Shown in pieces: positions 5,687-32,641 of a DNA stretch of 57,429 nt. Under the pieces are notes generated by a model. That model did not search any database and was not told where the DNA came from. It saw only the letters and a program-made list of their open reading frames with translations. The position numbers and the translations under genes were made by a program. This DNA comes from Verrucomicrobiota bacterium (GTDB taxonomy: Bacteria > Verrucomicrobiota > Verrucomicrobiia > Opitutales > Opitutaceae). Positions within the stretch are counted from its first letter, which is position 1. Every line of letters starts with the position of its first letter. The stretch is from contig JAPLTR010000271.1 of NCBI GenBank assembly GCA_026398065.1, positions 1 through 57,429 on the forward strand. Reading direction: 5' to 3'.

Positions 5687-5816
5687 TCCCAATCCCGGGA
5701 TCGTTTTTTCCCGCATTGCACACAACCGGGCCGGCTCCGAACCGCGCAGCTAGTTCATATTATCTTTGATAAACAATGGTTTACGAACTTCTATCCGAGC
5801 TGGCACGCGCATTGCA
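5687..5816 (+). promoter_or_regulatory. Sigma54 promoter module P1: UAS palindrome, A/T tract and -24/-12 element
   Basis: TGGCACgcgcaTTGCA at 5801-5816 has exact GG-N10-GC spacing. The palindrome TCCCAatccCGGGA at 5687-5700 lies 101 nt upstream of the GG. An A/T-rich tract sits at 5752-5790. The ATG of the next ORF is 30 nt downstream. Confidence 0.8.
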
Positions 5817-5845
5817 AAGGGAGGGCTCAACTCACTCACATCACC

Positions 5846-6124
5846 ATGAAGACTTCCTTCACCGCCTTCTCGCTCATTCTCGCCGCCGGGTTTCCCGGCT
5901 CGCTCCTCGCCGAATTCGCCGGCGTTTCCCTGCCGGCGGCGCTCGAGCCCGGCACGACCTTCGGGGTCGCCGTGGCCGTCCTGACGCTCCTCACGGCGTT
6001 CTCCGACTACACCCGGCATCCCTCCGCGCTCGTCGCGGGCGCGGCCGGCGCGACGCGCGACTCCGCCCTCGCGTCCGCCACGCGGACCGACGCCGCCACG
6101 GAAGAACGCCGCCTCGCCGCGTGA
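5846..6124 (+). CDS. Small (92 aa) secreted/membrane protein, first gene behind sigma54 promoter P1
   Basis: MKTSFTAFSLILAAGFPGSLLA|EF looks like a signal peptide, and a second hydrophobic segment follows (TTFGVAVAVLTLLTAF). Third-codon positions are G/C-rich in this frame. I recognised no similar family. Confidence 0.45.
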   Translation: MKTSFTAFSLILAAGFPGSLLAEFAGVSLPAALEPGTTFGVAVAVLTLLTAFSDYTRHPSALVAGAAGATRDSALASATRTDAATEERRLAA

Positions 6125-6192
6125 ACCTGACGGCGCAACTTCCTTCCGCCCGTCATCTTGACAGTCCCGACGCGCCCCTTGTCACTTCCCGC

Positions 6193-7560
6193 ATGTCAGA
6201 CGCGCCCCCGCATCGCATTTTGATCGCCGACGACCAGGCGGACGTGCTCGAAGCCCTCCGCCTGCTCCTCAAATGCGAGGGCTACGCCACCGAAGTCGTC
6301 AAGTCCCCGGCTGCCGTCATCAAGGCCGTCGAGGCCCGCGACTACGCGCTGGTGCTGATGGACCTCAACTACGCGCGTGACACCACGAGCGGCCAGGAAG
6401 GCCTGGAGCTGTTGCAAAAGCTCGCCGCCATCGACGCGACGCTCCCGGTCGTCGTCATGACCGCGTGGGCCAGCGTCGATGTCGCCGTCGAGGCCATGCG
6501 CCGCGGCGCGCGCGACTTCGTCACCAAGCCGTGGGACAACCCGCGTCTCCTCGCGATCGTCCGCAATCAGATCGACCTCGGCCACGCCGTCCGCGCCTAC
6601 CGCCGCCTCGAGCAGGAAAACCAACTGCTCCGCACGTCCGGCAAATCCGGCCCGACGCTCATCGCGCAGTCCGCCGCGATGCGTCCGGTCCTCGACGTGA
6701 TCGCGCGCGTCGGCCCGTCCGACGCCAATGTCCTCATCACCGGCGAAAACGGCACCGGCAAGGGCCTCGTCGCCCAGGCGCTGCACGCGGTGTCCGCGCG
6801 CGCGGGAAAACCGTTCATCTCCGTCAACATGGGCGGCCTCCCCGAAGGGGTCTTTGAGAGCGAACTCGTCGGCCACGTGCGTGGCGCGTTCACCGACGCG
6901 AAATCCGACCGCGCGGGCCGCTTCGAACTCGCCGACAGCGGCACGCTCTTCCTCGACGAGATCGGCAACATCCCGCTCTCCCAGCAGGCCAAGATTCTCC
7001 GGACGATCGAGACGGGCGAATTCGAGCGCGTCGGCTCGTCGCGGACCTTCCGCGCCAACGTCCGCCTCGTCTCCGCCACCAACTCCGACCTGCAGGCCGA
7101 GGTCGCCGCGGGGAAATTCCGCCAGGACCTCCTCTTCCGCCTCAACACGATCCAGCTCCACCTGCCGCCGCTCCGCGAGCGCCGCGAGGACATCGAGCTG
7201 CTCGCGCAGCATTTCCTGAAGGCGCACGTCGACCGCTACCGGAAACCGATCACGGGCTTCGACGCCTCCGCGCTCGACGCGCTCCGCGCCTATTCCTGGC
7301 CCGGCAATGTCCGCGAGCTCGACCACTCCGTCGAACGCGGCGTGCTCATGGCGCCCGGCAAAGTCGTGCGCGCCGCCGACCTCGGCCTCAACGCCGCGCA
7401 GGCCACGCCACGGCTCGAGGAAATGAGCATCGAGGAAGTGGAGGCGTTTCTCATCAAGAAGACCCTCGCCCGCTGCGACGGCAACGCCCGCAAGGCCGCC
7501 GAGGAGCTCGGCCTGAGCCGCAGCGCGTTTTACCGGCGGCTGGAAAAGTATGGGCTCTGA
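6193..7560 (+). CDS. NtrC-family sigma54-dependent response regulator (enhancer-binding protein)
   Basis: 455 aa from ATG 6193. Receiver domain (ILIADDQADVLE...LVLMDLNY). AAA+ sigma54-interaction domain with GENGTGKG Walker A, a GAFTDA loop and LFLDEIG Walker B. C-terminal Fis-type HTH (ARKAAEELGLSRSAFYRRLEKYGL). The upstream part of the track ORF (5776-6192) is an Arg-rich read-through and is not counted. Confidence 0.9.
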   Translation: MSDAPPHRILIADDQADVLEALRLLLKCEGYATEVVKSPAAVIKAVEARDYALVLMDLNYARDTTSGQEGLELLQKLAAIDATLPVVVMTAWASVDVAVEAMRRGARDFVTKPWDNPRLLAIVRNQIDLGHAVRAYRRLEQENQLLRTSGKSGPTLIAQSAAMRPVLDVIARVGPSDANVLITGENGTGKGLVAQALHAVSARAGKPFISVNMGGLPEGVFESELVGHVRGAFTDAKSDRAGRFELADSGTLFLDEIGNIPLSQQAKILRTIETGEFERVGSSRTFRANVRLVSATNSDLQAEVAAGKFRQDLLFRLNTIQLHLPPLRERREDIELLAQHFLKAHVDRYRKPITGFDASALDALRAYSWPGNVRELDHSVERGVLMAPGKVVRAADLGLNAAQATPRLEEMSIEEVEAFLIKKTLARCDGNARKAAEELGLSRSAFYRRLEKYGL

Positions 7561-7676
7561 GCGGCGGTGAGCTTTAGGCTGTAGGCCACCCGCCATTCCC
7601 GCTAGCGATCCGGCGCATGAAAAACTATCGCGCACTCCCTGTGGGAAAAACCTGATGGGCTGCAGACCGCCGTCTC

Positions 7677-9026
7677 ATGCCTAAATCCAACCGCAGGTTC
7701 TCCCACGATCAGGTCGTATTTTTCTACGCGCTGCTCGCCGGTCTCCCCTCGGTCGCCGTCGCCATGTATTTCCTCTGGCTGGACGATCCCGCGCCCGCGG
7801 CGAAGATCCAGTGGACGTTCACGCTGCTGATCGCGGGGTTCTGGTTCGGTTTCGCCGCCGCCACGCGCAACCGCGTCGTGCGCCCGCTGCAGACGATGGC
7901 CAACCTCCTCTCCGCGCTGCGCGAGGGCGACTTCGCCGTCCGCGCCCGCGGCGCCCGCCGGGACGAGGCGCTGGGCGACGTGATGTTCGAGATCAACACG
8001 CTCAGCCGCACGCTGCAGGACCAGCGCCTCAACGCCCTCGAGGCCACCGCCCTCCTCCGCACCGTGATGGAGGAGATCAACATCTCCATTTTTGCCTTCG
8101 ACGCCGACCGCAAGCTCCGCCTCGCCAACCAGGCCGCGCAGCTCCTGCTCAACAAGCCCGCCGAGCGCATCCTCGGCCGCGACGCCGCCGAGATCGGCCT
8201 CGCCGACTGCCTCGACGGCGAGCCGACCCGCCTCCTCCAGATCACGTTCCCCGGCGGCACCGGCCGCTGGGGCATGCGGCGCAGCCAGTTTCGCGAGGGC
8301 GGGCGGCCGCACCAGCTCGTCGTCATCGCCGATCTCAGCCGCACGTTGCGCGAGGAGGAGCTGCTCGCGTGGCAGCGCCTCGTGCGCGTCCTCGGCCACG
8401 AACTCAACAACTCGCTCGCGCCGATCAAATCCATCGCCGGCAGCCTCAGCTCGCTCCTCCGCAATCCCAAGCGCGCGCCGGACTGGGAGGACGACATGCG
8501 CAGCGGCCTCGACATCATCGCGTCGCGTTCCGAGAGCCTCGCGCGCTTCATGCAGGCCTACGCGCGCCTCGCCCGCCTCCCCCAGCCCACCGTCGCGCCC
8601 TGCGAGATCACGGACCTCGTGCACCGCGTCGTCGCGCTCGAGCGCCGCCTCCCGGTGCGCGTGCTCGGCGGGCCGAACCTCACGCTCGCCTGCGACGCCG
8701 CGCAGATCGAACAGGTCCTGATCAACCTCGTGAAAAACGCCGTCGAGGCCGCGCTCGAGCAGCGCGCCGAGGGCCAGGCCGACGCCACCGTGCGCCTCTC
8801 GTGGCGCAGGACGGGCAACGTCGCCGAACTCCTCGTCGAGGACGACGGACCGGGCATCGCGCAGACCTCGAACCTCTTCGTCCCGTTCTTCACGACGAAG
8901 CCCGAGGGCTCCGGCATCGGCCTCGTCCTCTGCCGCCAGATCGCCGAGAACCACGGCGGCTCCCTCGCCCTCGCCAACCGCCCCGGCGACACCGGCTGCC
9001 TCGCGACCCTGCGGCTGCCGGCGTAA
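7677..9026 (+). CDS. Sensor histidine kinase (2 TM, minimal external loop, HAMP, PAS-like, HisKA, HATPase)
   Basis: 449 aa. TM1 is VVFFYALLAGLPSVAVAMYFLWL, the loop is DDPAPAAKIQ, and TM2 is WTFTLLIAGFWFGFAAA. H-box LGHELNNSLAPI. ATP-lid boxes NLVKNAVEA, DDGPGI and GSGIGL. Confidence 0.9.
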   Translation: MPKSNRRFSHDQVVFFYALLAGLPSVAVAMYFLWLDDPAPAAKIQWTFTLLIAGFWFGFAAATRNRVVRPLQTMANLLSALREGDFAVRARGARRDEALGDVMFEINTLSRTLQDQRLNALEATALLRTVMEEINISIFAFDADRKLRLANQAAQLLLNKPAERILGRDAAEIGLADCLDGEPTRLLQITFPGGTGRWGMRRSQFREGGRPHQLVVIADLSRTLREEELLAWQRLVRVLGHELNNSLAPIKSIAGSLSSLLRNPKRAPDWEDDMRSGLDIIASRSESLARFMQAYARLARLPQPTVAPCEITDLVHRVVALERRLPVRVLGGPNLTLACDAAQIEQVLINLVKNAVEAALEQRAEGQADATVRLSWRRTGNVAELLVEDDGPGIAQTSNLFVPFFTTKPEGSGIGLVLCRQIAENHGGSLALANRPGDTGCLATLRLPA

Positions 9027-9041
9027 TCAAACTCAGGATAC

Positions 9042-9059
9042 GCCGCGGCCCTCCGCGGC
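9042..9059. terminator. GC hairpin in a convergent intergenic region (possible bidirectional terminator)
   Basis: GCCGCGG-ccct-CCGCGGC is a 7-bp stem with a 4-nt loop. It lies between the HK stop (9026) and the stop of the minus-strand gene (9066). There is no U-tract. Confidence 0.3.
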
Positions 9060-9065
9060 CGCGCG

Positions 9066-11729
9066 CTATCTCTCGATGAACAGCGCCCGCTGGTCGCCGA
9101 TCCCGATCCACTGTTTGGCGAACGGCAGGTAGTTGATCAGCACGCCGTTGTTGCCCTGCATCGCGTTCTTCCGGCCGTCGAACAGCATGAGCGCCCCGTG
9201 GGTGTCGTCGACCGGCACGTAGATCGCAACGAGCGTGTCGATCGTCTCCGGGATGTAGTTCGCCAGCTGCTGGCGTGCGCGCGCCTCCGCGTAGTGCAGT
9301 TGCTCGGGGGTCGGATGAAACTGCCCCTGCACGGTGATTTCAAACGGCTCCTCAATCAGCGAGCGGCGGTAGGGCCACTTGAGTTTGGCATTGCGCAGCT
9401 CCTCTGCCGTCGGCGCGTGCGGCGGACTCACGATCTGCCGCCAGGCGGTGAGATGCATCGCGAGGGACGGGGGATGCCGGATCCCCTGCCGCACGCTCCC
9501 GACCGCGAGCAGGACGCCCAGAACCCAGCCCGCGGCCACCGCGGCCCAGGTCGCCGCCTGGCGCGGGGGAAAGTTCAGCCGCACCTCGTCGGCGGGGATC
9601 GCCACCGTCTTCACCTCGGCGCAGATCCGCTTCAGTTCCGCCGTCGCGGCCGCCAGCGTCGTCGGCTGGCCGGTGGCGATGGCGAGGCGTCGGAGCTCCG
9701 TTTCACAGCGGCCGATCCCATCGCGCCAGGCCCAGGGGGTCGTCTCCGCGATCCAGCGGCCCACTGACACCGCCTGTTCACGGTTGGTCAGCAGCCGCAG
9801 GCCCAGGGCAAGCACGATGGGGGTCAGCCCCAGCAGCACGCCGGTCGGCCCCGGCACGTGGACCGCCAGCAGCAGGATGCCGCCGATGCCCGCCGCCGCA
9901 AACAGCCACCGCCGGCCAAACACCATCGGGCCCGCCTTCATCGCCAGCTCCAGCCGGCCCCAGAACACGATCTTCACCAGGGCCGCGGCCCGCTTCAGCA
10001 GCTCCGCGAGCCGCCGCTGCCGGACCTCTTCATGCGTGAGAAAACCGAACCGCGGCGCCTCCTGCTCCATCCGGGCGAGCACCAAAATCATCACGGGCGT
10101 CGGGTGCGGGACCGAGAAAACCCGCTCCACCGCGGCATCCGTCGTCATCGCATAGCGCGTTTTCATTTTCAGCCGGGTGGCCGTCAGCTCCGTTTCGCCG
10201 GTCAGCGCCAGCCGCCACAACGCCGCCGGATCGCCCAGGTCGGCCGGCTTCACGCCGACCTGTTTTTCAAAAAAGAGCTCCGCATCGAGGACCCATTTCA
10301 CCAGTTCCTCCAGCAGGTCCGCCGCGGTGTGGTCGTAGCGGCGCACCTGGGCCACCAGCGCCGGCTCGGACAGCACGATCAGCTCGGTGCGGAGGGTCGC
10401 AAACTCCTCCGGCCGATCGAGGGCCGCCCGCAGGTTTTCCGGATTCAACGCCTTTCCCTTCCACCGAAAATGCCCCTGCGCCAGGGAGTTTAGCGCGAGC
10501 GTCGCCACCACCAGGTGGCGGAGCTTGGGCTCGACCTTGGTCAGCGCGGTCGACTTCTCCAGTGCGCGCACCGACTCGATTTGCGCCCAGTCCCGGCGGT
10601 GCGTTTCCGATTCCGCCAGAAACTTGGCGAGCGTGCCGGCCTGGTTGGCGGCCAGCGCATGCTCCTCCACCCTCGCGCAATGCTCCGGGCCCAGCAGGCG
10701 GTCGGCCGCCTCCGCCGCGGAATGGCTGCGGCCGTCGATGCGAAAGAAACGTTCGAGCCGCGCGGAGTTGTAGCGTTCGACCGGCAGCTCGCCAGCCAGC
10801 CACGACCGCACGCTCTCCGCCCCCCACCGTCCGTCCATCGAGCTTGTCAGCAGGCCGCGCAACAGCCGCGCCAGCCGCGGCTCGAGCGCCCCCATCAGCT
10901 CCACCGCGCCGGCCCGCAACGTCCCGGTCGCTCGCTCAAACAGGAGCGCCTCGGCCAGCCCGCCCAGACTTTGCGGCAGACCCGCCCGCAGGTCGGGCGG
11001 CACCAGCGTCACTACGTGCCGGCCGATCATGAACTGCTGCACCACCCGGCCCACCGACCACCAGTCCCACGCGAGCAGGGCGGACCCGGGCGAATGCTTG
11101 AACAGCCCGGCCGTCTCCGGCGGCGCGTACAGCGGATCCGCCTCGATCATGATCAGGCCCTTCTGCTCGGTCTCGGTGACCCGGTCCAGTCCCCCCACGA
11201 CAAAGTGCGGGCCCGCCGGTTCCTCCCGGACGAAGATCCAGTCCGCGTTCAGTTGAAAATGCCCCAGTCCCGCGGCGTGCAGCGCCTCGACGGCCAGCGC
11301 CAGCTGCCTCACCAGTTCGGCCGTAACCTCCGCCGTCGGTTCGCTCTGATCCGCCCGCCAGCGCCGCAGCGAAACTCCCGCCACCCCCTCCCAAACCTGG
11401 ACCAGCCCGTCCGCCGTGAGGTGCGACTCGATCGGCCGCTGCCAGTGGGGACACGGGATTGCCCGCAGCCGTTCGAATCTCGCCGTCCGGCCCTTGACGT
11501 CGTCGGCCGCCGCAAACGTGCGCAACAGCACCCCTTCGCCGGTCGTGAGATCGGTCGCCTGATACCAACCGGTCGTCGCGTCCCCCCACACCCCGGACAC
11601 CTGATAGCGCCCGTTCCAACATGCTCCGACCACGACCCGCCCCGCCGCGGGCCCGGGGCGCGAAGAGGGGTCCTTCGCTTCCAGACCGACAGCCCCGGAG
11701 GCGGGGGAATCGATGGTTTCTGAGAGCAT
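9066..11729 (-). CDS. 887-aa membrane protein with an N-terminal degenerate Hanks-type kinase (pseudokinase) domain
   Basis: The kinase-fold landmarks are present but the catalytic residues are lost. VLLRTF replaces VAIK, HAAGLGHFQLNADWIFV replaces HRDLKPxN, GGLD replaces DFG, and YAPPE and WDWWSVGRVVQQFMIG are retained. A long helical middle region follows, then ~3 TM helices (aa ~608-745) and a ~140-aa C-terminal domain of unknown type. Confidence 0.6.
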   Translation of the reverse strand: MLSETIDSPASGAVGLEAKDPSSRPGPAAGRVVVGACWNGRYQVSGVWGDATTGWYQATDLTTGEGVLLRTFAAADDVKGRTARFERLRAIPCPHWQRPIESHLTADGLVQVWEGVAGVSLRRWRADQSEPTAEVTAELVRQLALAVEALHAAGLGHFQLNADWIFVREEPAGPHFVVGGLDRVTETEQKGLIMIEADPLYAPPETAGLFKHSPGSALLAWDWWSVGRVVQQFMIGRHVVTLVPPDLRAGLPQSLGGLAEALLFERATGTLRAGAVELMGALEPRLARLLRGLLTSSMDGRWGAESVRSWLAGELPVERYNSARLERFFRIDGRSHSAAEAADRLLGPEHCARVEEHALAANQAGTLAKFLAESETHRRDWAQIESVRALEKSTALTKVEPKLRHLVVATLALNSLAQGHFRWKGKALNPENLRAALDRPEEFATLRTELIVLSEPALVAQVRRYDHTAADLLEELVKWVLDAELFFEKQVGVKPADLGDPAALWRLALTGETELTATRLKMKTRYAMTTDAAVERVFSVPHPTPVMILVLARMEQEAPRFGFLTHEEVRQRRLAELLKRAAALVKIVFWGRLELAMKAGPMVFGRRWLFAAAGIGGILLLAVHVPGPTGVLLGLTPIVLALGLRLLTNREQAVSVGRWIAETTPWAWRDGIGRCETELRRLAIATGQPTTLAAATAELKRICAEVKTVAIPADEVRLNFPPRQAATWAAVAAGWVLGVLLAVGSVRQGIRHPPSLAMHLTAWRQIVSPPHAPTAEELRNAKLKWPYRRSLIEEPFEITVQGQFHPTPEQLHYAEARARQQLANYIPETIDTLVAIYVPVDDTHGALMLFDGRKNAMQGNNGVLINYLPFAKQWIGIGDQRALFIER

Positions 11730-11848
11730 GCTGCGTTAACCCCAATCGCTCGATTTCCGAACGACTTAAGGCCGATGGTATTTCTACTCTACGGCGCAGC
11801 GGGGCCTTTCCCTCTGAGTAGTCCCGCGCCGTCCGGCTTTCCGACCTG

Positions 11849-11977
11849 TCCCACTTCTGGGAAATCCACGTCCCACCAACGCGGCCTGGATCGCCGACCC
11901 GTTTTCCATCGAAAATTTCTTTCCACTCTTTTCCAACGACTTATCCACCGTCGCATCCCTTGGGCACGACCGCTGCA
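11849..11977 (+). promoter_or_regulatory. Sigma54 promoter module P2 (upstream of the MacA-like gene)
   Basis: GGGCACgaccgCTGCA at 11962-11977 has GG-N10-GC spacing. The palindrome TCCCActtcTGGGA at 11849-11862 lies 100 nt upstream of the GG. AAATTTCT at 11913-11920 sits about 50 nt upstream of the GG. Confidence 0.7.
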
Positions 11978-11998
11978 AACATCCCCGCACACACACAC

Positions 11999-13252
11999 AT
12001 GGACATCGCGCGCCCCGACCAATCCAAGCTCAAGCGGAAGAAACTCATTATCTATATCTCGGTCGCCGTCGTCATCCTCGTCGGCATCACCGTCCTCTTG
12101 GCGCGCCTCAAGCCCGCCGCCCCCACCGTCGAGCGCAACCTCGTCTGGATCGATACGGTGAAGCGCGGCCAGATGCTCCGCCAGGTCCGCGGTCTCGGCA
12201 CCCTCGTTCCCGAGGAGATCCGCTGGATCGCCGCCCGCACCCAGGGGCGCGTCGACAAGATCATCCTCCGCCCCGGCGCGATCGTCACTCCCGAGAGCGT
12301 GATCCTCATGCTCGCCAACCCCGACGTCGAGCAGGCCGCCGCCAACGCCGACTCCCAGCTCAAGGCCGCCGAGGCCGAACTCGCCAATCTCCGCGTCACC
12401 CTCCAGTCCGGCGTCCTCGCCGCCGAATCCGTCGCCGCCAGCGCCAAGGCCGACTACGAAACCTCCCGGCTCCGCTCCGAGGTCAACGAACAGCTCGCCA
12501 AGGACGGCCTCATCTCCGACCTCGACCGCCGCCTCTCCAAGGTCACCGCCGAACAGGCCGCCACCCGCAACGGCATCGAGCAAAAACGCTTCGCCTTCGC
12601 CCAGGACGCCATCGCCCCGCAGCTCGCGGTCAAACAGGCCGAGGTCGACCGCCTCCGCGCCCAGGCCCGCCTCCGCCGCGACGAACTCGAGGCCCTCACC
12701 GTCCGCTCCAGCATGAACGGCGTCCTCCAACTGCTCCCCGTCGAGGTCGGCGCGCAGGTCCAGCCCGGCTCCAACCTCGCCCGCGTCGCCGATCCCACCA
12801 GGCTCAAGGCCGAGATCCGCGTCGCCGAGACCCAGGCCAAGGACATCCTCAAGGGCCAGCTCGCCCAGGTCGACACGCGCAACGGCGTCGTCGAGGGCAC
12901 CGTCGCCCGCATCGATCCGTCCGTGCAAAACGGCACCGTCACCGTCGATGTGCTGATCACCGGCGCCCTCCCGAAGGGCGCGCGCCCCGACCTCTCCGTG
13001 GATGGCACCATCGAGCTCGAGCGCCTCACCGAGGTCGTCTACGTCGGCCGCCCCGCCTTCGGCCAGGAGAAGAGCGAGGTCGGCATCTTCAAGCTCGACG
13101 CCGAGGGCGCCTACGCCACCCGCACCCGCGTGAAGCTCGGCCGCAGCTCCGTGAACACCATCGAGATCGTCTCCGGCCTCCAGCCCGGCGACCGCGTGAT
13201 TCTCTCCGACATGTCGCCGTGGGATTCCAACGATCGCATCAAACTCAACTGA
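11999..13252 (+). CDS. MacA/HlyD-family periplasmic adaptor (membrane fusion protein)
   Basis: 417 aa from ATG 11999. Basic N-terminus plus a TM helix (KRKKLIIYISVAVVILVGITVLLA). Lipoyl/barrel-sandwich motifs (GRVDKIILRPGAIV, MNGVLQLLPVEVGAQVQPG). A long coiled-coil hairpin in between. Confidence 0.85.
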   Translation: MDIARPDQSKLKRKKLIIYISVAVVILVGITVLLARLKPAAPTVERNLVWIDTVKRGQMLRQVRGLGTLVPEEIRWIAARTQGRVDKIILRPGAIVTPESVILMLANPDVEQAAANADSQLKAAEAELANLRVTLQSGVLAAESVAASAKADYETSRLRSEVNEQLAKDGLISDLDRRLSKVTAEQAATRNGIEQKRFAFAQDAIAPQLAVKQAEVDRLRAQARLRRDELEALTVRSSMNGVLQLLPVEVGAQVQPGSNLARVADPTRLKAEIRVAETQAKDILKGQLAQVDTRNGVVEGTVARIDPSVQNGTVTVDVLITGALPKGARPDLSVDGTIELERLTEVVYVGRPAFGQEKSEVGIFKLDAEGAYATRTRVKLGRSSVNTIEIVSGLQPGDRVILSDMSPWDSNDRIKLN

Positions 13253-13321
13253 TTTCCTGAAACTTTTCACCCGGTCGGGGGCTTTACCTTCCAGCTCCTC
13301 CCTCCTCGACCCACTCCCGTC

Positions 13322-13396
13322 ATGATCGCCCTCACCATCCTCCTTGCCCTGATGATCGCCTTTGTCGCCCACGACACCGCCGACCAGCAGCGCTGA
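13322..13396 (+). CDS. Candidate 24-aa single-TM micro-protein between the adaptor and ATPase genes
   Basis: ATG...TGA encodes MIALTILLALMIAFVAHDTADQQR. Third positions are G/C-rich. It sits in an otherwise unexplained 192-nt gap. The only evidence is the ORF itself. Confidence 0.25.
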   Translation: MIALTILLALMIAFVAHDTADQQR

Positions 13397-13444
13397 GTCC
13401 TTTCCCTCCGCCTCGTCTCCACGACCAACCTACCTTCCCCCACC

Positions 13445-14146: not shown

Positions 14147-14214
14147 GCCGCGCGGCTCTGCGCCGCCCGGCGCCCAGGGTCTGATCAGCCCTCGCTTTCC
14201 CTCTTCCCCTTCCA

Positions 14215-22379: not shown

Positions 22380-22489
22380 AACTCCCCCGCGCCGACTCCG
22401 CGCTTACCCAATTTCGCGGATTCCGGTTTTCGTTTTACCACCATTCCGTCCCTCGCCGCTCGCACCGCCACGCCCTCCCGCTCCCTCCG

Positions 22490-25012: not shown

Positions 25013-25072
25013 CCTCCGAAATCGTTCTCTTTCCTCGTTCTCTTAATCTTTCTCCTCCCCCTTTTCCCGCGC

Positions 25073-25128
25073 CACCATTCGTCATTCCCCTCCAATCGAA
25101 AATCGAGAATCCAAAATCGAAAATTCCC
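25073..25128 (+). repeat. 8 x 7-bp phased leader: CACCATT CGTCATT CCCCTCC AATCGAA AATCGAG AATCCAA AATCGAA AATTCCC
   Basis: Read directly. The A/T-rich 35-bp part (25094-25128) recurs at 27647-27680 with one mismatch. Confidence 0.9.
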
Positions 25129-25141
25129 CCCGCCGGCCCTC

Positions 25142-27568
25142 ATGTTTCACGCCCTCAAAACCGCCGTCCGCCAGCTCACCAAGACCCCCGGCTTCACCGC
25201 CATCGCCGTCCTCACGATGGCCGTCGCCATCGGCGCGTGCACCGCCCTCTTCAGCGTTCTCCAAGCCGTCGTCCTCCGCCCGCTGCCGTATCCGAATCCC
25301 GATACGCTCGTCAGCCTCTGGGCCATCAACCCCGAACGCAGCCTTCAGGCCCCCGCTCTGTCCTGGGCGAAGTTTGAGGCCTATCGCACCCGCACCGATG
25401 TCTTCGCCGACATCAGCATGTCCGCCGGCAACGGCTTCACTCTCACCGAGGGCAAGGGCGATCCCGAACAAGTCTTCGGCACCCATGCCTCCGCCAACTT
25501 CCTGCCCATCCTCGGGCTCCAGCCGCTGCGCGGCCGCCAGTTCACCGCCGAGGAGGACAAAGAGGGCGGCCCCTCGGTCGTGATGATCAGCGCGCGCCTC
25601 TGGAAGACCCGCTTCGGCTCCGACCCCGCCATCGTCGGCCGCGTGCTCCAGATTGACGGCGTCGCCCGTGAAGTCGTGGCCGTCCTGCCCGAAAAGATCC
25701 CCGTCCCGTTCAACAACGTCGACATCCTCGTTCCCCGGCCGCTCGAGCTTCCCTACCTCACCCCCCAGCAGCGCGCCAACGCCATCGTTCATCAGGCCAT
25801 CGCCCGTCTCGCCCCCGGCGTCACCCTCGAGCAGGCCAATCTCCGCATCAGGGAGATGGCCGCGCAGTTCAAGGCCGCCAACGCCAACACCCTCGACGCC
25901 GCCAACGCCAACGAGGTCCGCACCATCTCCCAGCAGGTCCTCGGCAACCTCACCCGCACCTTCTGGACACTCGCCGGCGCCGTCGCCGCCGTCCTCCTGA
26001 TCGCCTGCGCCAACATCGCCAATCTCTTCCTTGCCCGCGTCAGCGCCCGGCAGAAGGAAATCGCCGTGCGCCTGTCGCTCGGCGCGCAGCGCGGCGCCGT
26101 GATCCGCCAGTTTCTCGCCGAGAGCACCGTCTTCTCCGTCGTCGCCGGCGGCCTCGGCGTGATGCTCGCCTGGTGGAGCCTCCGCGGCATCCAGCTCCTC
26201 GCCGGCCAGCAGATCCCCCGCGCCGAGGAGATCGGCCTCGACCCCGTCGTCCTCGCGTTTTCCCTCGTGGTCGCCCTCCTCTCCGGACTCCTCATCGGCC
26301 TCTACCCCGCGTTGCAGGCCTCGCGCACCGATGTGCAGACCGTCCTCAAGGACTCCTCCCGCGGGGCCGGCGGCGGCACGGCCGCCAAGGCGTTCCGCCA
26401 CACGCTCGTCGTCCTCCAGGTCGCCGTGTCGCTCGTCCTCCTCATCTCCGCCGGCCTGCTCGTGCGCAGCTTCCACAAGCTGCAGACCGCGGAGCTGGGC
26501 TTCGCCGCCGCCGGTCGCGCCTACGGCATCGTCAACCTCCCGAGCACGCGCTACGCGAAACCCGAGGCCTCCCGCGAATTCTTCCGCCGGCTGCAGGAGC
26601 GCCTCTCCGCCGCCCCGGAGCTCGCCTCCGGCGCCGCCATCAACGGCCTCCCCCTCACCGGCCAGGGCTTCCTCTCGCCCTACGGCGTGCAGGGCCGAGC
26701 GCTCCCGCCCATCCATGAGCGCCCGCTCGCCAATATCCGCACGCTCACCCCCGCGTACTTCGCCACCCTCGACATCAAGCTGCTCTCCGGCCGCTTCTTC
26801 ACCGAGCAGGACCGCTTCGGTGGCGAGAGTGTCGCCATCATCAACGAGACCCTCGCGAAAAAACTGTTCCCCAACGACTCGCCCCTCGACCACGCCTTCG
26901 TCACCGGCCCCAACAGCGACCTCATCACCCGCATCGTCGGCGTCATCCGCGACGTGAAGTCCGCCGGCCTCGCCGTCCCGCCGCCCGACGAGATCTACTA
27001 CCCGCGCGACCAGCGGGGCGGCGCCTTCATGTGTGTCGTCGCGCAGGCCCGGCCCGGCCTCGCCGCCAGCGCCGTCATCCCCGTGCTCCGCCGCCTCCTC
27101 GCCGAGCTCGATCCCACCGTCGCCCTCGCCCTTCCGCAGACGATGGAACAGCTCGTGAGCCAGTCCATCGGCGTGCAGCGCGTCACCATGGCCCTCCTCA
27201 TCTGCTTCGCCGCCATCGCCGCGCTCCTCGCCGCCGTGGGCGTGTATTCGGTGATGGCCTACAGCGTCGCCCAGCGCACCGGCGAGATAGGCGTGCGCAT
27301 GGCCCTCGGCGCAAGCCATGCCGACATCCTCCGTCTCGTCCTCCGCAGCGGCGCCACCCAGGTCGGCCTCGGTCTGGCCCTCGGCCTCGGCGGCGCCCTT
27401 GCCGCGAGCCAGCTCCTCGCCCAGTTCCTCTACGAGGTCAGGCCCTTCGACCCGCTCGTCTTCGCCTCCCTTGCCGCCGCCTTCGCCCTCATCGCCACCC
27501 TCGCCTGCCTCATCCCCGCGAGACGCGCCACCCGCGTCGACCCCATGGTCGCCCTGCGGACGGAGTGA
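25142..27568 (+). CDS. ADOP-type permease, paralogue 5 (intact)
   Basis: 808 aa. MFHALKTAVRQLTKTPGFTAIAVLTMAVAIGACTALFS...RPLPYPNPDTLV... Ends RRATRVDPMVALRTE*. Confidence 0.9.
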   Translation: MFHALKTAVRQLTKTPGFTAIAVLTMAVAIGACTALFSVLQAVVLRPLPYPNPDTLVSLWAINPERSLQAPALSWAKFEAYRTRTDVFADISMSAGNGFTLTEGKGDPEQVFGTHASANFLPILGLQPLRGRQFTAEEDKEGGPSVVMISARLWKTRFGSDPAIVGRVLQIDGVAREVVAVLPEKIPVPFNNVDILVPRPLELPYLTPQQRANAIVHQAIARLAPGVTLEQANLRIREMAAQFKAANANTLDAANANEVRTISQQVLGNLTRTFWTLAGAVAAVLLIACANIANLFLARVSARQKEIAVRLSLGAQRGAVIRQFLAESTVFSVVAGGLGVMLAWWSLRGIQLLAGQQIPRAEEIGLDPVVLAFSLVVALLSGLLIGLYPALQASRTDVQTVLKDSSRGAGGGTAAKAFRHTLVVLQVAVSLVLLISAGLLVRSFHKLQTAELGFAAAGRAYGIVNLPSTRYAKPEASREFFRRLQERLSAAPELASGAAINGLPLTGQGFLSPYGVQGRALPPIHERPLANIRTLTPAYFATLDIKLLSGRFFTEQDRFGGESVAIINETLAKKLFPNDSPLDHAFVTGPNSDLITRIVGVIRDVKSAGLAVPPPDEIYYPRDQRGGAFMCVVAQARPGLAASAVIPVLRRLLAELDPTVALALPQTMEQLVSQSIGVQRVTMALLICFAAIAALLAAVGVYSVMAYSVAQRTGEIGVRMALGASHADILRLVLRSGATQVGLGLALGLGGALAASQLLAQFLYEVRPFDPLVFASLAAAFALIATLACLIPARRATRVDPMVALRTE

Positions 27569-27680: not shown

Positions 27681-30095
27681 ATGTCTCTCCTCCGCCACGG
27701 CCTCACCTCCCTCCGCCGCGCCCCGCTCCTTGCGCTCACCATCGTCGCGACCCTGGGCGTCGCCCTCGCCGCGACCGTCATCGTCTTTTCGTTTCTCAAC
27801 TCCTTCCTCCTTCGACCCCTCCCCTACGGCGACGGCTCGCGTCTCGTGGTCGTGTATGAGCACTCCCTCGTCGGCGGACGCGACAACTCCACCCGCGTCA
27901 CCTACGGCAATGTCGTGGCCCTCCACGAACGCGCCACCGCCTTCTCGCGCAGCGGCATCTTCCGCAACGAGTCCGCCACCTTCCGCGGCGCCGATTCCAG
28001 CGAGACCGCCTTCGTCCAGCGCGTCACCGCCGAGATCTTTCCGATGATGGGCGCGCGCGCCGCCCTCGGCTCCGTGATCACGCCCGCGAACATCCAGACC
28101 GGCGGCCTCCGCGCCCTCGTGCTGTCCGATTCGCTCTGGCGCCGCCGCTTCGGCGCCGATCCCACCATCGTCGGTCGCACCATCCAGCTCGACCAAACCT
28201 CGTTCCAAGTCGTCGGCGTCATGCCGGCCGACTTCGTCGTGCCCACCGGCGACGACAGCCCCCAGGCCTGGGCCGCCCTCCTCCGCTCCGACTACGATCC
28301 CGCCGAGCGCACCCAGCGCCGCCACCACTTCTGGGGCGAACTCGCCCCCGGACGCAGCCTCGTCTCCGCCGAGGCCGAACTCGCCACCCTCGCCGCCCAG
28401 CTCCGCCGCGAGTTCCCCCGGGAAAACGCCGACCGCGGCCTCCGCGTCGTCTCGCTCCGCGACGACCTGCTCGGCAACTTCGGCCGCCAGTTGTTCCTCC
28501 TGCAGGGCGCCGTGCTGCTCGTGCTGACCGTCGCCTGTTTCAACTGCCTCTGCCTGCTGATCGCCCGCGCGATTCAACGCCGCCGGGAGTTCGCCGTGCG
28601 CCTCGCCCTCGGCGCCTCGGTGCGCCACCTCCTCGCGCAGCTCTTCGCCGAGTCGCTCTGGCTCGCCGTCCCCGCCGCGGCCCTCGCGTGCGGGCTCGCC
28701 GCGCTCGCCCTGCCCTTCGGCGTCTCCCTCCTCCCGCCGCTCGGCCCGCTGCCGGCCCCGCAGGTCGATGCCACCGTGATCGCCGCCGTATCGCTGGCCG
28801 CGGTCGGCCTCGCCGCCATCTTCAGCGCCGTCCCGCTGCTGCAGGCCCGCCGCCTCAATCTCGAGGCCACGCTCCGCGAGGGCGGCCGCACCGCCGGCTC
28901 GCGCGGCTCCGCCCGCGCCGCCCGCTTCCTCGCCGCCGGCCAGATCGCCGTCGCCCTCGCCCTCCTCATCTGCGGCGCGCTCCTGGTCCGCAGCCAGGAC
29001 GCGCTCCAGCGCGTGGATGTCGGCCTGCCCATTGCCGAGTTCGACCAGTTCCGCATCGGTCTCCGCGGCGACGCCTACACGGCCAGTCCCGCCCGCCGCG
29101 TCCAGTTCTTCGAGCGCCTCCGCGAAAACCTCCTCACGATTCCTGGTGTCCGCGACGTCGGGGTGGCGAGCTTCCTCTTCTCCCGCCCACCCGGCGGCTA
29201 CACCGGCTTCGTGCAGGAGGGCGACGGTCTCCAACTCTCCGATACGCCCAAGCGCGCCCTCCCCAACTACGTCCTCCCCTCCACGCTCAACGCCCTCGGC
29301 TTCCGCCTGCTCGATGGCCGCCTCCTCGCCGACACCGACGACGCCAGCCATCCGCCGGTCGCCGTGATCAGCGCCTCTGTCGCCGCCAAATACTGGCCCG
29401 GCCAGTCGCCGCTGGGGAAACGCGTCCGGCTCGACGTCCCCCGCGTCACCGCCTGGGCCGAGGTCGTCGGCGTCGTCTCCGATGTGATCGGCACCGGCGC
29501 CGAGCCGCGCGTGGTCGACACGTTTTATCTCACCATCGCGCAATGGACCCCGCCCGGCCTCGGCATGGGCTTCATCGTCCGCCACAGTGGCACCGCGCCC
29601 GACGAGCGCCAGCTGCAGCGCGCCGTCGCACAGATCGATCCCGCCATGCAGCTCTTCGCCCATCTCTCGCCCTCGGCGATCTATGCCCGCAGTCTCTGGC
29701 AGGTGGGCTTTGTCACGAAACTCGTCGGCGCCTTCGCCCTCATCGCCGTCGCTCTCTCGCTCGCCGGCATCTACGCCGTCAACTCCTTCTTCGTCGCCCG
29801 CCGCATCAACGAATTCGGCATCCGCGCCGCCCTCGGCGCCACGCGCCTTGACCTCCTCCAGCTCGTCCTCCGCGACAGCCTGCGCCTCACCGTCGCCGGC
29901 CTCGCCGCCGGCGCGCTCCTGGCCTTCGCCGCCAGCCGCGGTCTCACCAACCTCCTCTACAACGTCCCCGCCCTCGACCTCCTCGTTTACACGGCCGCCG
30001 CCCTCGCCATGACCCTCGCCTGCGCCGGCGCCACCCTCCTCCCCGCCCGCCGCGCCGCGAAAGCCGACCCCCTCACCGCCCTCCGCGCGGAATGA
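27681..30095 (+). CDS. ADOP-type permease, paralogue 6 (intact)
   Basis: 804 aa from ATG 27681. MSLLRHGLTSLRRAPLLALTIVATLGVALAATVIVFS...RPLPYGDGSRLV... Ends RRAAKADPLTALRAE*. Confidence 0.88.
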   Translation: MSLLRHGLTSLRRAPLLALTIVATLGVALAATVIVFSFLNSFLLRPLPYGDGSRLVVVYEHSLVGGRDNSTRVTYGNVVALHERATAFSRSGIFRNESATFRGADSSETAFVQRVTAEIFPMMGARAALGSVITPANIQTGGLRALVLSDSLWRRRFGADPTIVGRTIQLDQTSFQVVGVMPADFVVPTGDDSPQAWAALLRSDYDPAERTQRRHHFWGELAPGRSLVSAEAELATLAAQLRREFPRENADRGLRVVSLRDDLLGNFGRQLFLLQGAVLLVLTVACFNCLCLLIARAIQRRREFAVRLALGASVRHLLAQLFAESLWLAVPAAALACGLAALALPFGVSLLPPLGPLPAPQVDATVIAAVSLAAVGLAAIFSAVPLLQARRLNLEATLREGGRTAGSRGSARAARFLAAGQIAVALALLICGALLVRSQDALQRVDVGLPIAEFDQFRIGLRGDAYTASPARRVQFFERLRENLLTIPGVRDVGVASFLFSRPPGGYTGFVQEGDGLQLSDTPKRALPNYVLPSTLNALGFRLLDGRLLADTDDASHPPVAVISASVAAKYWPGQSPLGKRVRLDVPRVTAWAEVVGVVSDVIGTGAEPRVVDTFYLTIAQWTPPGLGMGFIVRHSGTAPDERQLQRAVAQIDPAMQLFAHLSPSAIYARSLWQVGFVTKLVGAFALIAVALSLAGIYAVNSFFVARRINEFGIRAALGATRLDLLQLVLRDSLRLTVAGLAAGALLAFAASRGLTNLLYNVPALDLLVYTAAALAMTLACAGATLLPARRAAKADPLTALRAE

Positions 30096-30144
30096 CGAAT
30101 ACCGGATGACGGAGGCCCCCCGCACCGGTCGCCCCCTCGCAATC

Positions 30145-30186
30145 CGTCCTTCGTCACTAGCCATTAGGCATTGGTCATTCGTCATT
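30145..30186 (+). repeat. 6 x 7-bp tandem repeat (CGTCCTT CGTCACT AGCCATT AGGCATT GGTCATT CGTCATT)
   Basis: Read directly. Followed by CCCC, 42 nt before ATG 30229. Confidence 0.9.
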
Positions 30187-30228
30187 CCCCGGTAACCTTT
30201 CCCTTCCCGGCGAGTTTTCGGTTGCGCC

Positions 30229-32641
30229 ATGCTTGCCGATCTCAAGTTCGCCCTCCGCCAGCTCGCGAAATCCCCCGGCTTCACCGCCGTCGCCGTCCTC
30301 TCCCTCGCCCTCGGCATCGGGGCCAACACCGCCGTCTTCAGCCTGATGAAGGCCGTCCTGCTCGAAATGCTGCCAGTCAGGGCCCCGCAGGAACTCGTCA
30401 TCTTCAACTGGCTCGCCGAGGAAAACGTCGGCCCTCAGTCCTCCAGCGGCTGGAGCACCACGGAGCCCGGTTCCAACCAGCGCACCAGCACGTCGTTTTC
30501 CCTCGCCACCTTCGAGGCGTTTCAAAAACAGCCCGGTCCCCTCTCCGCCGTCTTCGCTTTCGCCCCCACCGGTGGATTCAACGTGATCGTCGATGGTACC
30601 GCCGAGATCGCGGGCGGCTGTCAGGTTGCTTCCGGCGGCTATCATCTCGGACTCGGCGTCACGGCCGCCGCCGGCCGCCTTTTCACCCCCGCCGACGACC
30701 TTCCTTCGGCCGAGCCCGTCGCCGTGATTTCGTACCGCTACTGGCAGCGCCGTTTCGGTGGCGACCCGGCCGCCATCGGAAAATCCATCACGGTCAACGG
30801 CGTCCCCACCATCCTGATCGGCGTCACCTCTCCCTCGTTCAACGGCACGATGCAGGTCGGCGAAGTCACCGACATCACGATCCCCCTCGCCCACGAGACC
30901 CGCCTCAGCCGTTCTCCCTACGACAACCGCAAGCCCGGCTATTGGTGGGTCCGCATCATGGGCCGGATGTCCCCCGGCGCCACGCTCGCCCAGGCCCGCG
31001 GCGCCCTGGAGGGCGTCTTTCACGAAACCGCGCGCGGCAACGTCAGCGCGAGCACCTGCCCGGCGCGCCCGCCGTCGACCCCGCCACGATTCCCCTGCCT
31101 CAGCTCCGCGCCGAGCCCGGCGGCCAGGGTCTCTACGAGGCGCGGCGCAACTACGAGCAGTCGCTGCGGCTCCTCCAGGGCGTCGTCGCCCTCGTCCTGC
31201 TCGTCGCCTGCGCCAACGTCGCCAATCTGGCCTCGTGTTCTCCCTCTGGGGGGCGCGGGCCCTCCTTGCCCTGAAGCCGTTTGGCTCCGGCACGCTCGAT
31301 CTCGACACCTCCCTCGACTGGCGCGTGCTGGGCTTCACCTCCGCCATCGCGCTCGCGACCGGCATTGTCTTCGGCCTCGCCCCCGCCCTCCGCGCCACGC
31401 GCCTGAACCTCACCGCCGAGTTCCAGGGCGGCGCGCGCACCCTCGGCGCCGGCTCGCGCTCCGCCCTCGCGAAATCCCTGATGGTCGTCCAGGTCGCCCT
31501 CTCCCTCGTGCTGCTCGTCGGCGCCGGGCTGTTCGTCCGCACGCTGCGCAACCTCCAAAACGTCGATGTCGGTTTCAACCGAGAGCAGTTGCTGCTGTTT
31601 CAGATCAACGCCGCCGCCAACGGCGCCACCGGCCCGCAGTCCCTCGCCCTTTACGAGCGCATGCGCACCCGCTTCACCACCCTGCCGGGCGTCAACCGCG
31701 TCTCGTTCGGCCGCATGCCGACGCTCAGCCAGAACAACTGGACCTCCGGCGTCATGGTGCCCGGCTACGTCCAGACCGAACGCTACGACAGCATCCGCCT
31801 GAACGGCGCCGGCCCCGACTACCTCGCCACCCTCGGAATCCCGCTGCTGCGCGGTCGCGATTTCACCGACCGCGATGTCCACGGCGCGCCCAAGGTCGCG
31901 ATCGTCAACCAGGCCTTCGCCAAAAAATACCTGGGCTCGGAGGAGGAGGTCATCGGCCGCCGCTTCTCCACCGACCGCAAGGCCACGACGCCCGACATCG
32001 AGATCGTCGGCCTGATGCGTGACGCGCAGTATTCCCATGTGAAGACGCCCCCGCCGGCCGTCGCGTTCTTTCCCTACGCCCAGCTCAATCCGGACAACGC
32101 CGGCATGGGTCATTTCATCCTGCGCTATCAGGGTGGCGAGGCCGCGCTCATCACCGCCCTCCGCGCCGCCGCGCGCGAGATCGACGCCACGCTCCCCATC
32201 ACCAACATCCGCACCCAGCAGGAACAGCTCGACCGGCTCTTCACCCAAGAGCGGCTTTTCGCGACCCTGTGCAGCCTCTTCGGCGGCCTGGCCCTCGTCC
32301 TCTCCGCCATCGGTCTGTACGGCCTCATGTCCTACGCCGTCCACCGCCGCACCGGTGAAATCGGCCTGCGCATGGCGCTCGGCGCGCTCCCACAAAACGT
32401 GCTCTCCATGGTCGTCCGCGAATCCCTCGTCCTCGTGCTCGTCGGCGTGGCGGTCGGCGTCGCCGCCTCGCTGGGTGCAACGCGCACCATCGCCAGCCTC
32501 CTCTTCGGCCTCTCCGGCACCGACCCGCTCACCTACGGTCTCGTCGCCCTCGGCCTGATCGCCGTCGCGCTCTTCGCCGCCCTGCTCCCGGCCCGCCGCG
32601 CCAGCCGCATCGATCCGATGCAGGCGCTGCGCACCGAGTAG
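30229..32641 (+). pseudogene. ADOP-type permease, paralogue 7: one frameshift plus an internal deletion
   Basis: ATG 30229 gives MLADLKFALRQLAKSPGFTAVAVLSLALGIGANTAVFS. The family sequence shifts frame at ~31040-31052 (..GVFHETARGN / ..EHLPGAPAVDPATIPLPQLRAEPGGQGLYEARRNYEQSLRLL..ACANVANL). It shifts again at ~31229-31240, resuming at VFSLWGARALLALKPFG. About 45 conserved residues (LLARA..REIAVRLALGA..TESLLLA..) are absent. The canonical end RRASRIDPMQALRTE* is present. Confidence 0.7.

Follow-up and report, generated by a model that had tools for sequence, protein, structure and literature searches.

A predicted sigma-54-dependent regulon for MacAB-TolC-type export machinery, run by a VfmH/VfmI-related two-component system, in a bacterium of the Opitutaceae

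What controls the two arrays of permease genes carried by contig JAPLTR010000271.1, a stretch of 57,429 nt (hereafter the window) from a soil or freshwater bacterium of the Opitutaceae? These permeases belong to the ADOP family (TIGR03434, "Acidobacterial duplicated orphan permease"). An initial annotation had read four sites of the window as sigma-54-type promoters with an upstream enhancer, forming one local regulon whose targets include MacA/ABC/ADOP exporter genes. Comparative sequence data support this proposal, and the exporter genes are confirmed as predicted targets by Pfam and NCBIfam profiles and by their recurrence in relatives. The window thus probably encodes a sigma-54-dependent regulon for MacAB-TolC-type export machinery, run by a single two-component system related to VfmH and VfmI of Dickeya. 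The regulon itself is well supported; that the regulator binds the palindromes of the enhancers, that transcription depends on sigma-54 and where the operons end is what we infer.

Motif statistics were computed on both strands of the whole window and compared with 100 shuffles. The palindrome TCCCA-N4-YGGGA is found only at positions 5687, 11849, 22251 and 56072 (seven strand matches against 0.28 expected, a number reached by 0 of the 100 shuffles), and GGCAC-N5-YTGC only at 5802, 11963, 22365 and 56185, each time on the plus strand. The two motifs pair one to one, with gaps of 101, 100, 100 and 99 nt between palindrome and GG at the promoters named P1 to P4. In all four -24/-12 elements, GG and GC are exactly 10 nt apart within a TGGCAC-N5-TTGCW context, and each palindrome is followed by a second, degenerate site, T[CT]CC[AG]-N4-CG, at a start-to-start distance of exactly 22 bp. 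The three-part architecture described initially is therefore borne out, both motifs being exclusive to these sites and the gaps fixed; its A/T tract, about 50 nt upstream of the GG, is present and is also a compositional feature of the whole family of sites. The pairing of the motifs in the window is real and far beyond chance. The elements are as follows.

5687-5722, plus strand: P1 enhancer, palindrome TCCCAATCCCGGGA (5687-5700) and second site TCCCGCATTGCACA (5709-5722)
5755-5785, plus strand: P1 A/T-rich tract and IHF-like sequence AAACAATGGTTTA, matching the family-wide AT-rich zone and IHF-like clustering
5801-5816, plus strand: P1 -24/-12 element TGGCACGCGCATTGCA, from the motif scan
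11849-11884, plus strand: P2 enhancer, TCCCACTTCTGGGA (11849-11862) and TCCCACCAACGCGG (11871-11884)
11912-11922, plus strand: P2 A/T tract AAAATTTCTTT
11962-11977, plus strand: P2 -24/-12 element GGGCACGACCGCTGCA
22251-22286, plus strand: P3 enhancer, TCCCATTTCTGGGA (22251-22264) and TTCCATCGTCGGAC (22273-22286)
22314-22324, plus strand: P3 A/T tract TAAATTTTTAA
22364-22379, plus strand: P3 -24/-12 element GGGCACGCCCTCTGCA
56072-56107, plus strand: P4 enhancer, TCCCAAAAGTGGGA (56072-56085) and TTCCACAAACGAAC (56094-56107)
56135-56167, plus strand: P4 A/T tract TAAATTTCTA and IHF-like sequence AATCATCCCCTTA
56184-56199, plus strand: P4 -24/-12 element CGGCACAGCCGTTGCT

All four enhancer-promoter pairs are intergenic, lie on the coding strand and point at genes, as had been noted. 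The P4 pair is intergenic because the minus-strand gene beside it has its start codon at ATG 55894 and not at 56149. A relaxed scan allowing one mismatch per half-element gave no further credible pair in the window, only poor intragenic matches. A sigma-70 promoter and terminator scan of positions 5500-25400 gave counts not above those of shuffles, and an Rfam scan of the window gave no match.

Because the DNA of the window has about 69% G+C, genes were called from codon-position G+C and then checked with Pfam and NCBIfam profiles. These profiles confirm the content initially assigned to each of the four units.

5846-6124, plus strand: small protein of 92 aa, first gene of the P1 operon (G+C at third codon positions 0.89)
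6193-7560, plus strand: NtrC-family enhancer-binding response regulator, VfmH homolog (REC domain, AAA+ sigma-54 interaction domain, Fis-type helix-turn-helix), P1 operon
7677-9026, plus strand: histidine kinase, VfmI homolog (first membrane helix, loop of about 10 aa, second membrane helix, HAMP, PAS, HATPase_c), P1 operon
11999-13252, plus strand: MacA/HlyD-type periplasmic adaptor, behind P2 (Pfam, NCBIfam)
13445-14146, plus strand: ATP-binding cassette (ABC) ATPase 1, MacB/LolD/DarD-like, behind P2 (66% identity to Dickeya VfmF)
14215-16576, plus strand: ADOP permease 1, GTG start, frame change near 14365 (Pfam, NCBIfam)
16913-19266, plus strand: ADOP permease 2, frame change near 18200-18232 (Pfam)
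19347-21764, plus strand: ADOP permease 3, intact (822 bits on TIGR03434)
21861-22193, plus strand: TfoX_N-domain protein, last gene of the P2 unit (Pfam)
22490-25012, plus strand: ADOP permease 4, intact, behind P3 (761 bits)
25142-27568, plus strand: ADOP permease 5, intact, behind P3 (852 bits)
27681-30095, plus strand: ADOP permease 6, intact, behind P3 (Pfam)
30229-32641, plus strand: ADOP permease 7, fourth behind P3, two frame changes at 30996-31304 and about 130 nt missing, probable pseudogene
56228-56494, plus strand: small signal-peptide protein of 88 aa, first behind P4, C-terminus PAHRFM
56578-57240, plus strand: ABC ATPase 2, behind P4 (Pfam, NCBIfam)

The regulator matches Response_reg (3e-22), Sigma54_activat (5e-62) and HTH_8 (5e-13), and its sigma-54 contact loop reads GAFTDA (residues 231-236). 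Pfam scans show no second enhancer-binding protein encoded in the window, in agreement with the initial annotation. No named equivalog (AtoC, NtrC, ZraR, GlrR, NtrX, PrsR) was reached at its cut-off, the best being AtoC with 393 bits against 714; an identity as NtrX/NtrY, the label given by JGI to homologs of the kinase, or as AtoC or PrsR was rejected on the same ground. In the kinase, a first membrane helix (about residues 13-35) is followed by a 10-residue loop, DDPAPAAKIQ, and by the second helix, without any periplasmic domain; the earlier statement that it has essentially no extracytoplasmic part is thus correct. Its PAS match is weak and below the Pfam cut-offs. More than 100 cluster representatives of this kinase share 75-91% identity with it, all from Opitutaceae or Verrucomicrobiota, and the topology (two helices around a 6-12 aa loop) is kept from Verrucomicrobiota to Gammaproteobacteria and VfmI.

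The 92-aa protein that precedes the regulator has a signal-peptide-like N-terminus, a second hydrophobic segment and a conserved C-terminus, ATEERRLAA, and belongs to no Pfam family. Proteins of the same type, of about 85-104 aa, are encoded in related sequences (here designated by L and a number) at L001 8017-8274, L002 7660-7974 and L004 8134-8385, and tblastn matches are found in L021, L061 and L100. This conserved protein may be an accessory protein of the kinase.

The permeases have the domain order MacB_PCD-FtsX-MacB_PCD-FtsX, and those tested score 761-852 bits on the ADOP model, for which the cut-off is 622.3. They share only about 30% identity among themselves. ADOP1 starts 69 nt past the stop of ATPase 1. 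ADOP4-7 have no adjacent ATPase gene but belong to the same regulon as two ATPases. The word "orphan", used for these permeases in the initial annotation, does not suit them, since two ATPases and an adaptor are co-regulated with them, as is a TolC-like protein in relatives. No TolC-like gene lies within the window, where adaptor, ATPases and permeases are present.

The P1 enhancer has orthologous sites in L001, L002 and L004. Two long contigs of relatives show the order small open reading frame (ORF), regulator, kinase, one variable gene, adaptor, ATPase and ADOP array. Motif and spacing are also conserved at the orthologous loci, the gaps of the P1 and P2 equivalents being 100 nt in close relatives and 109 nt in Opitutus sp. 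ER46. Beyond these loci, one genome per species was searched for TCCCA-N4-YGGGA, a gap of 88-114 nt and GGCAC-N5-YTGCWA. This reference scan returned at least 119 stretches holding at least 123 matches, and the matches listed come almost all from Verrucomicrobiota (Opitutaceae and Chthoniobacterales/Udaeobacter). The gap is 97-102 nt in 96 of the 123 matches listed and 108-110 nt in 15, each other value being represented about once; a few Udaeobacter regulator operons among them have a gap of 90-92 nt. Such steps of about one helical turn are what looping on one face of the helix predicts. The first gene after the promoter, among the 111 verrucomicrobial matches listed, is distributed as follows.

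49 of 111: MacA-type adaptor, usually followed by ATPase and ADOP genes
16 of 111: ADOP permease
14 of 111: TolC-like outer-membrane protein (Pfam OEP, 6e-44)
9 of 111: regulator operon
7 of 111: ATPase2 type
5 of 111: TonB_C-domain protein
6 of 111: contig end too close
5 of 111: other

Among these matches, about 100 of the 105 assessable sites precede exporter-class, TonB_C or regulator-kinase genes, and over 100 verrucomicrobial genomes show the motif again with its spacing and its classes of genes. The initial annotation had proposed to check in related Opitutales genomes whether motif and spacing are conserved; they are, almost all of the matches listed being from Verrucomicrobiota. The P4-type unit of relatives comprises the small ORF, ATPase2 and a TolC-like gene, the latter following ATPase2 in five of them. 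Small secreted TonB_C-domain proteins stand directly behind the same type of enhancer-promoter in L017, L023, L036, L058 and L088, a hint that the regulon includes outer-membrane or energy-transducing functions. The window itself has no rpoN; an rpoN-like gene and a MacA promoter match are present on the same Opitutaceae contig, L082.

A position profile of 114 verrucomicrobial sites shows which elements are conserved. The palindrome extends to G-TCCCA-N4-YGGGA-C, and the second site at +22 is present in 74 of the 114 matches, against 0 of 7 chance matches. An A/T-rich zone lies at -50 to -41 from the GG (AT content of 0.65-0.68, against about 0.36 further upstream) and a conserved TT at -21/-20. 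Weak matches to the IHF consensus cluster at -32 to -30 in 29 of the 114 sites, which is no more than suggestive. The -24/-12 consensus is TGGCACGggC.TTGCAAA, and the remaining spacer positions are unconserved. Since several of these elements lie outside the search pattern, their conservation is independent evidence of selection.

Seven matches outside Verrucomicrobiota (L015, L033, L059, L068, L072, L078 and L108) are unrelated, with no related genes nearby. They fit chance, because about 60 chance matches are expected in the whole collection by a rough estimate that assumes uniform base composition. One of them, L108 from the firmicute Gudongella sp., is a real sigma-54 promoter, that of an acetoin-dehydrogenase-type operon, with two inverted TTCCCACAATCGGGAA palindromes 22 bp apart.

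Five other matches among those listed are proteobacterial, and each stands ahead of adaptor-ATPase-ADOP genes. A compact operon, MacA-ATPase-ADOP-regulator-kinase, is found behind the same motif in L117, L041, L123, L022, L019 and L124; on the gammaproteobacterial contig L117, for example, the exporter operon runs on into the regulator and then the kinase. In Pseudoalteromonas, the permease is an ADOP protein (644 bits) and the regulator, 48% identical to that of the window, shares its GAFTDA loop and its recognition helix. Two perfect palindromes, separated by 23 bp, are found in P. xiamenensis. The recognition helix LGLSRSAFYRRL is kept from the window regulator to those of Pseudoalteromonas, Rahnella and Dickeya. 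That regulator, motif and exporter travel together across phyla is the main argument for the binding of this palindrome by this regulator.

Outside Dickeya, a complete vfm-like cluster of about 27 genes is carried by the 617-kb plasmid pRAHAQ01 of Rahnella aceris (L126, NC_015062, 236000-274000). It includes HlyD, ATPase, ADOP (685 bits), regulator, kinase and phosphopantetheinyl transferase genes beside an AraC gene. One palindrome lies there between two divergent -24/-12 elements, a layout like that of Dickeya. In the Rahnella regulator, residues 231-236 read GAFTDA and positions 195, 279 and 344 are arginines, in exact agreement with what is reported for VfmH.

The vfm cluster of Dickeya has reportedly been studied by Nasser (2013) and Lv (2019). 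Vfm is a quorum-sensing system involved in the virulence of this plant pathogen (PMC9306890; PMC10714721), and the window module is homologous to its VfmF/G/H/I part. Over 462 residues, the regulator shares 48% identity (E 1e-158) with the D. zeae protein that NCBI names VfmH; GAFTDA stands at the same residues and the helix, LGLSRSAFYRRLEKY, is identical. The kinase is 36% identical to VfmI (E 2e-85) and has the same topology, a very short loop between two membrane helices having been described for VfmI too (PMC9306890). ATPase 1 shares 66% identity with VfmF, and ADOP3-6 share 26-31% with VfmG, which scores 626 bits on the ADOP model and is itself a permease of that family. The 565-nt spacer between vfmE and vfmF of D. 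zeae holds the sole exact palindrome in 21 kb of the vfm locus, TCCCATTAATGGGA, with a second half-site in the 14-mer starting at +22, a consensus TGGCACACAATTTGCC directed at vfmE and TGGTATGATTTGTGCT directed at vfmF. Transcription of vfmE needs VfmH (PMC10714721). Expression of vfmE also requires IHF, which binds the promoter of this gene and on which signal production depends too (PMC9452768). The assignment of the palindrome to this regulator is stronger because the motif recurs in relatives, in proteobacterial operons that encode the regulator and ahead of vfmE.

Several differences separate the two systems. The window has no nonribosomal peptide synthetase-like biosynthetic genes or AraC relay (VfmE) near the module, whereas both are found in Dickeya and Rahnella. 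Dickeya lacks the HlyD adaptor, which Rahnella shares with the window. Where Dickeya has a single divergent spacer, the window has four dispersed promoters; it also has a second ATPase and two arrays with seven ADOP paralogs in all. Enhancer and promoter stand 100 nt apart in the window, the distances in Dickeya being 52 and 199 nt. The residues R195, R279 and R344 by which VfmH binds cyclic di-GMP, all kept in the Rahnella and D. zeae regulators, are Q, R and A in that of the window.

Taken together, these data suggest the following mechanism. The phosphorylated regulator (6193-7560) would bind a tandem enhancer made of site 1, GTCCCA-N4-YGGGAC, and site 2, TYCCR-N4-CG, two helical turns (22 bp) downstream. 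The A/T-rich, IHF-like stretch would bend the DNA, so that the AAA+ domain, through its GAFTDA loop, could open a -24/-12 promoter fixed about 100 nt from site 1 or, in some relatives, one helical turn further away. At P1, the operon of the small membrane protein, regulator and kinase would switch itself on, creating positive feedback; the comparative data support the autoregulation initially proposed for this operon. P2 to P4 would drive, respectively, the adaptor with its ATPase and three ADOP permeases, four further ADOP permeases, and the second ATPase, while the same type of promoter would also drive TolC-like and TonB_C genes in relatives. Since they would share a regulon with ATPase, adaptor and outer-membrane parts, the "orphan" ADOP permeases are therefore likely to be alternative membrane subunits.

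Some observations weigh against this interpretation. The leader at P2 is only about 12 nt long, without a Shine-Dalgarno sequence. The contact motif is GAFTDA instead of GAFTGA in the whole subfamily, VfmH included. GAFTDA is counted among the functional contact-motif variants by Kazakov et al. (PMC4641369), but a VfmH pull-down did not bring down RpoN, and its authors leave open the effect of the G-to-D change on contact (PMC10714721). The published predicted IHF site of Dickeya (PMC9452768) lies downstream of the -24/-12 element found here, which does not fit simple looping. The two-component operon of Opitutus sp. ER46 stands alone, away from exporter genes. The acetoin operon of L108 has similar half-sites and spacing with a different activator system, so that the half-site alone is not specific. 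The pattern of the reference scan is exact and derived from the window, and its tallies are a sample and not a census. Finally, three of the seven ADOP genes of the window (ADOP1, ADOP2 and ADOP7) are disrupted, so that probably not all targets of the regulon are functional. These frame changes could reflect the decay of redundant copies in the arrays or, alternatively, errors in the assembly of paralogous DNA; other long genes of the window (1458 and 1463 aa) are intact, unlike the disrupted ADOP genes.

Comparison with known systems helps to place the predicted regulon. As in NtrC/NifA-type promoters, tandem sites on the same face of the helix lie about 100-135 nt before the start site, with an A/T-rich IHF-like stretch in between, a TGGCAC-N5-TTGCW element and spacing that changes by whole helical turns. 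The recognition sequence differs, however, the contact loop is the GAFTDA variant and the output is exporters instead of nitrogen metabolism. The pump resembles MacAB-TolC of E. coli and DarBCD/DevBCA-type exporters in its HlyD-type adaptor, MacB-type ATPase and permease with MacB periplasmic core and FtsX domains, and in the TolC-like partners found in the same regulon in relatives. It differs from them in that the ATPase is a separate polypeptide, that one chain with an internal duplication (ADOP) replaces the MacB homodimer, that alternative permeases are numerous and that control is predicted to be by sigma-54. Within the ADOP family, the permeases of the window are typical by their scores above cut-off and their large paralogous arrays. 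By contrast, their host is not acidobacterial, an ATPase gene immediately precedes ADOP1-3, and ATPases belong to the regulon of all seven. Next to the ADOP genes of acidobacteria, the regulators described are of the PadR type and not sigma-54 activators.

What, then, does the kinase sense? The initial annotation had likened it to the intramembrane-sensing kinases of the Bce type, and two helices with a loop of about 10 aa, below the limit of about 25 aa for that type, are indeed present; it is nevertheless not of pure Bce type, because it has HAMP and PAS domains, the latter weak. Like BceRS-BceAB, the window couples an FtsX/MacB-superfamily transporter genetically to a two-component system; the kinase has two membrane helices with hardly any extracellular loop between them, and the transporter genes are the regulated target. 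Unlike it, the regulator is of the NtrC/sigma-54 and not the OmpR type, with -24/-12 and not sigma-70 promoters. The permease is an 8-helix duplicated MacB_PCD-FtsX protein, whereas BceB has 10 helices and one large extracellular domain. Moreover, the machinery is tripartite (adaptor, TolC) and the two-component system is autoregulated. A Bce-like role of VfmG, as co-sensor for the loop-less kinase VfmI, was already proposed (PMC9306890). By analogy with Bce systems and with this proposal, sensing through an ADOP permease is plausible.

In the strict form of this idea, which we hold only tentatively, the loop-less kinase would itself bind no ligand and would read the conformational cycle or the ligand occupancy of an ADOP permease; each paralog would be both an exporter and a ligand-specific sensor, and pump substrates would induce the regulon. 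The topology kept from Verrucomicrobiota to Gammaproteobacteria and VfmI argues for it, as do the operons of Proteobacteria, Udaeobacter and Dickeya in which a single ADOP permease accompanies regulator and kinase, and the fact that polymorphism of VfmG, not of VfmI, tracks signal variants in Dickeya, the basis of the co-sensor proposal (PMC9306890). However, Bce kinases lack the cytoplasmic HAMP and PAS domains, the Opitutaceae kinase is co-transcribed with the conserved small membrane protein and not with a permease, and one kinase with 75-91% identity would have to read at least seven permeases sharing about 30%. The same HAMP and PAS domains would suit a kinase that senses something else, be it a perturbation of membrane or envelope felt by its own helices, the small membrane protein or a cytoplasmic cue read by PAS, with the exporters as mere outputs, an explanation that we regard as possible without favouring it. 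Accessory proteins of this kind have precedents in LiaF for LiaS and QseG for QseE. The two-segment small membrane protein is indeed conserved as first gene of the autoregulated Opitutaceae operon, and in ER46 the two-component system lies apart from exporters. Yet the versions of Udaeobacter, Proteobacteria and Dickeya lack this protein and have an ADOP permease ahead of the regulator, and the PAS match does not reach the Pfam cut-offs.

Homology to the sensor module of Vfm could also mean cell-cell signalling instead of detoxification. The pumps would export a secreted signal, for which the small signal-peptide proteins at the head of the P1 and P4 units are a possible source, and this signal would be sensed, with positive feedback. 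The autoregulatory design of P1 and the conserved C-termini of the small secreted ORFs are consistent with such signalling, which we nonetheless consider unlikely: biosynthetic genes (adenylation enzymes, acyl carrier protein, ketoacyl synthase KAS) are not found near the verrucomicrobial module, unlike in Dickeya and Rahnella, the P4 small ORF is missing in L071 and L119, and large arrays of divergent permeases suit many substrates better than one signal. The P4 ORF is of low complexity, and its conserved end, PAH(R/L)FM, is shared by the window, L027 and L102. A reading that would undo the regulon altogether takes the palindromes for hairpin terminators or sites of another protein and the GG-N10-GC matches for fortuitous. 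A terminator-hairpin scan does pick up the P1 palindrome with the following T run, but the stem has only 5 bp, the T run exists at P1 only and terminator-like matches are fewer than in shuffles. As the scan does not exceed shuffles, terminators were rejected, and the helically periodic spacing, the conservation across phyla, the association with the regulator gene and the known target of VfmH make the whole reading highly improbable.

The predicted sigma-54 regulon also allows a broader and more speculative view, which we hold to be somewhat doubtful. The VfmFGHI-type unit would be an ancient cross-phylum device in which the ADOP permease is the ligand-binding receptor of a sensor-less kinase with sigma-54 as its output route, and the Opitutaceae would have turned it into a combinatorial array. 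At least seven divergent permeases, each with its own periplasmic peptide or small molecule, would then share one ATPase/adaptor/TolC set and one kinase.

The window also carries other genes. Between the histidine kinase and P2 lies an 887-aa minus-strand kinase-like gene (9066-11729) with weak Kdo/protein-kinase matches, whose slot is taken by a TonB_C protein in L004 and by other genes in L001. A minus-strand cluster of small-protein genes (98-5529) diverges from P1 and is syntenic in L001 (3528-7582) and L004 (3835-7819), with DUF7305 and CBM_5_12 in the window and faint PilO and N_methyl matches in relatives. Just past the second ADOP array is an IS630-type transposase gene (DDE_3 and helix-turn-helix, 35148-36281, minus strand), with a 770-aa membrane protein (32707-35019) between the two. 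Two proteins of about 1460 aa with DUF7133 (42190-46566 and 47950-52341), one of them also carrying ThuA and cytochrome c and the other 3-keto-disaccharide hydrolase and Laminin_G_3 domains, are unrelated to the regulon, as are the neighbouring sulfatase, AraC regulator and PEP-hydrolase-like genes. After ATPase 2, the gene at 57274-57429 (MNRSFPRLF...FIYILRLVPRLHADAAWT) is not TolC-like, and the window ends within this region.

The claim of the initial annotation that a sigma-54-coupled analogue of Bce systems is undescribed was only partly right, since VfmF/G/H/I are known genetically and the co-sensor idea for VfmG is published (PMC9306890). The canonical promoter architecture, the protein families, the genetics of the Vfm module and the permease-as-co-sensor hypothesis are already known. 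A literature search on sigma-54 with MacB, ADOP, FtsX or HlyD found nothing relevant, and the main texts of Francke 2011 and Kazakov 2015 do not mention sigma-54-linked exporters of this type. As far as the searchable literature goes, the new elements are the DNA motif and the sigma-54 promoter predicted for this subfamily of regulators, the association of the subfamily with ADOP-type exporters across phyla, the expansion, in Verrucomicrobiota, to a regulon of several promoters that covers a complete tripartite pump, and the recognition of VfmG as an ADOP permease.

The regulon gives a first regulatory handle on the ADOP permeases, a very large "orphan" family whose members appear here as parts of co-regulated tripartite ABC export. 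For a distinct subfamily of enhancer-binding proteins that ranges from Verrucomicrobiota to Enterobacterales, it also provides a predicted cis-regulatory code, in which a tandem TCCCA-N4-TGGGA enhancer is followed by an A/T-rich bend and, at a phased distance, by a -24/-12 promoter. Two questions about Vfm in Dickeya, whether VfmH acts via sigma-54 and which DNA it binds, become testable with the predicted VfmH site in the vfmE-vfmF spacer, and the proposed co-sensor VfmG finds its place in the ADOP family. If sensing through the permease is true, Bce-like transport-coupled signalling would extend beyond Firmicutes and OmpR-type regulators. Should the combinatorial array also prove true, a wide variety of foreign compounds, or signals, would be detected and expelled by the same proteins, which would give a role to the large ADOP family and identify the missing receptor of Vfm.

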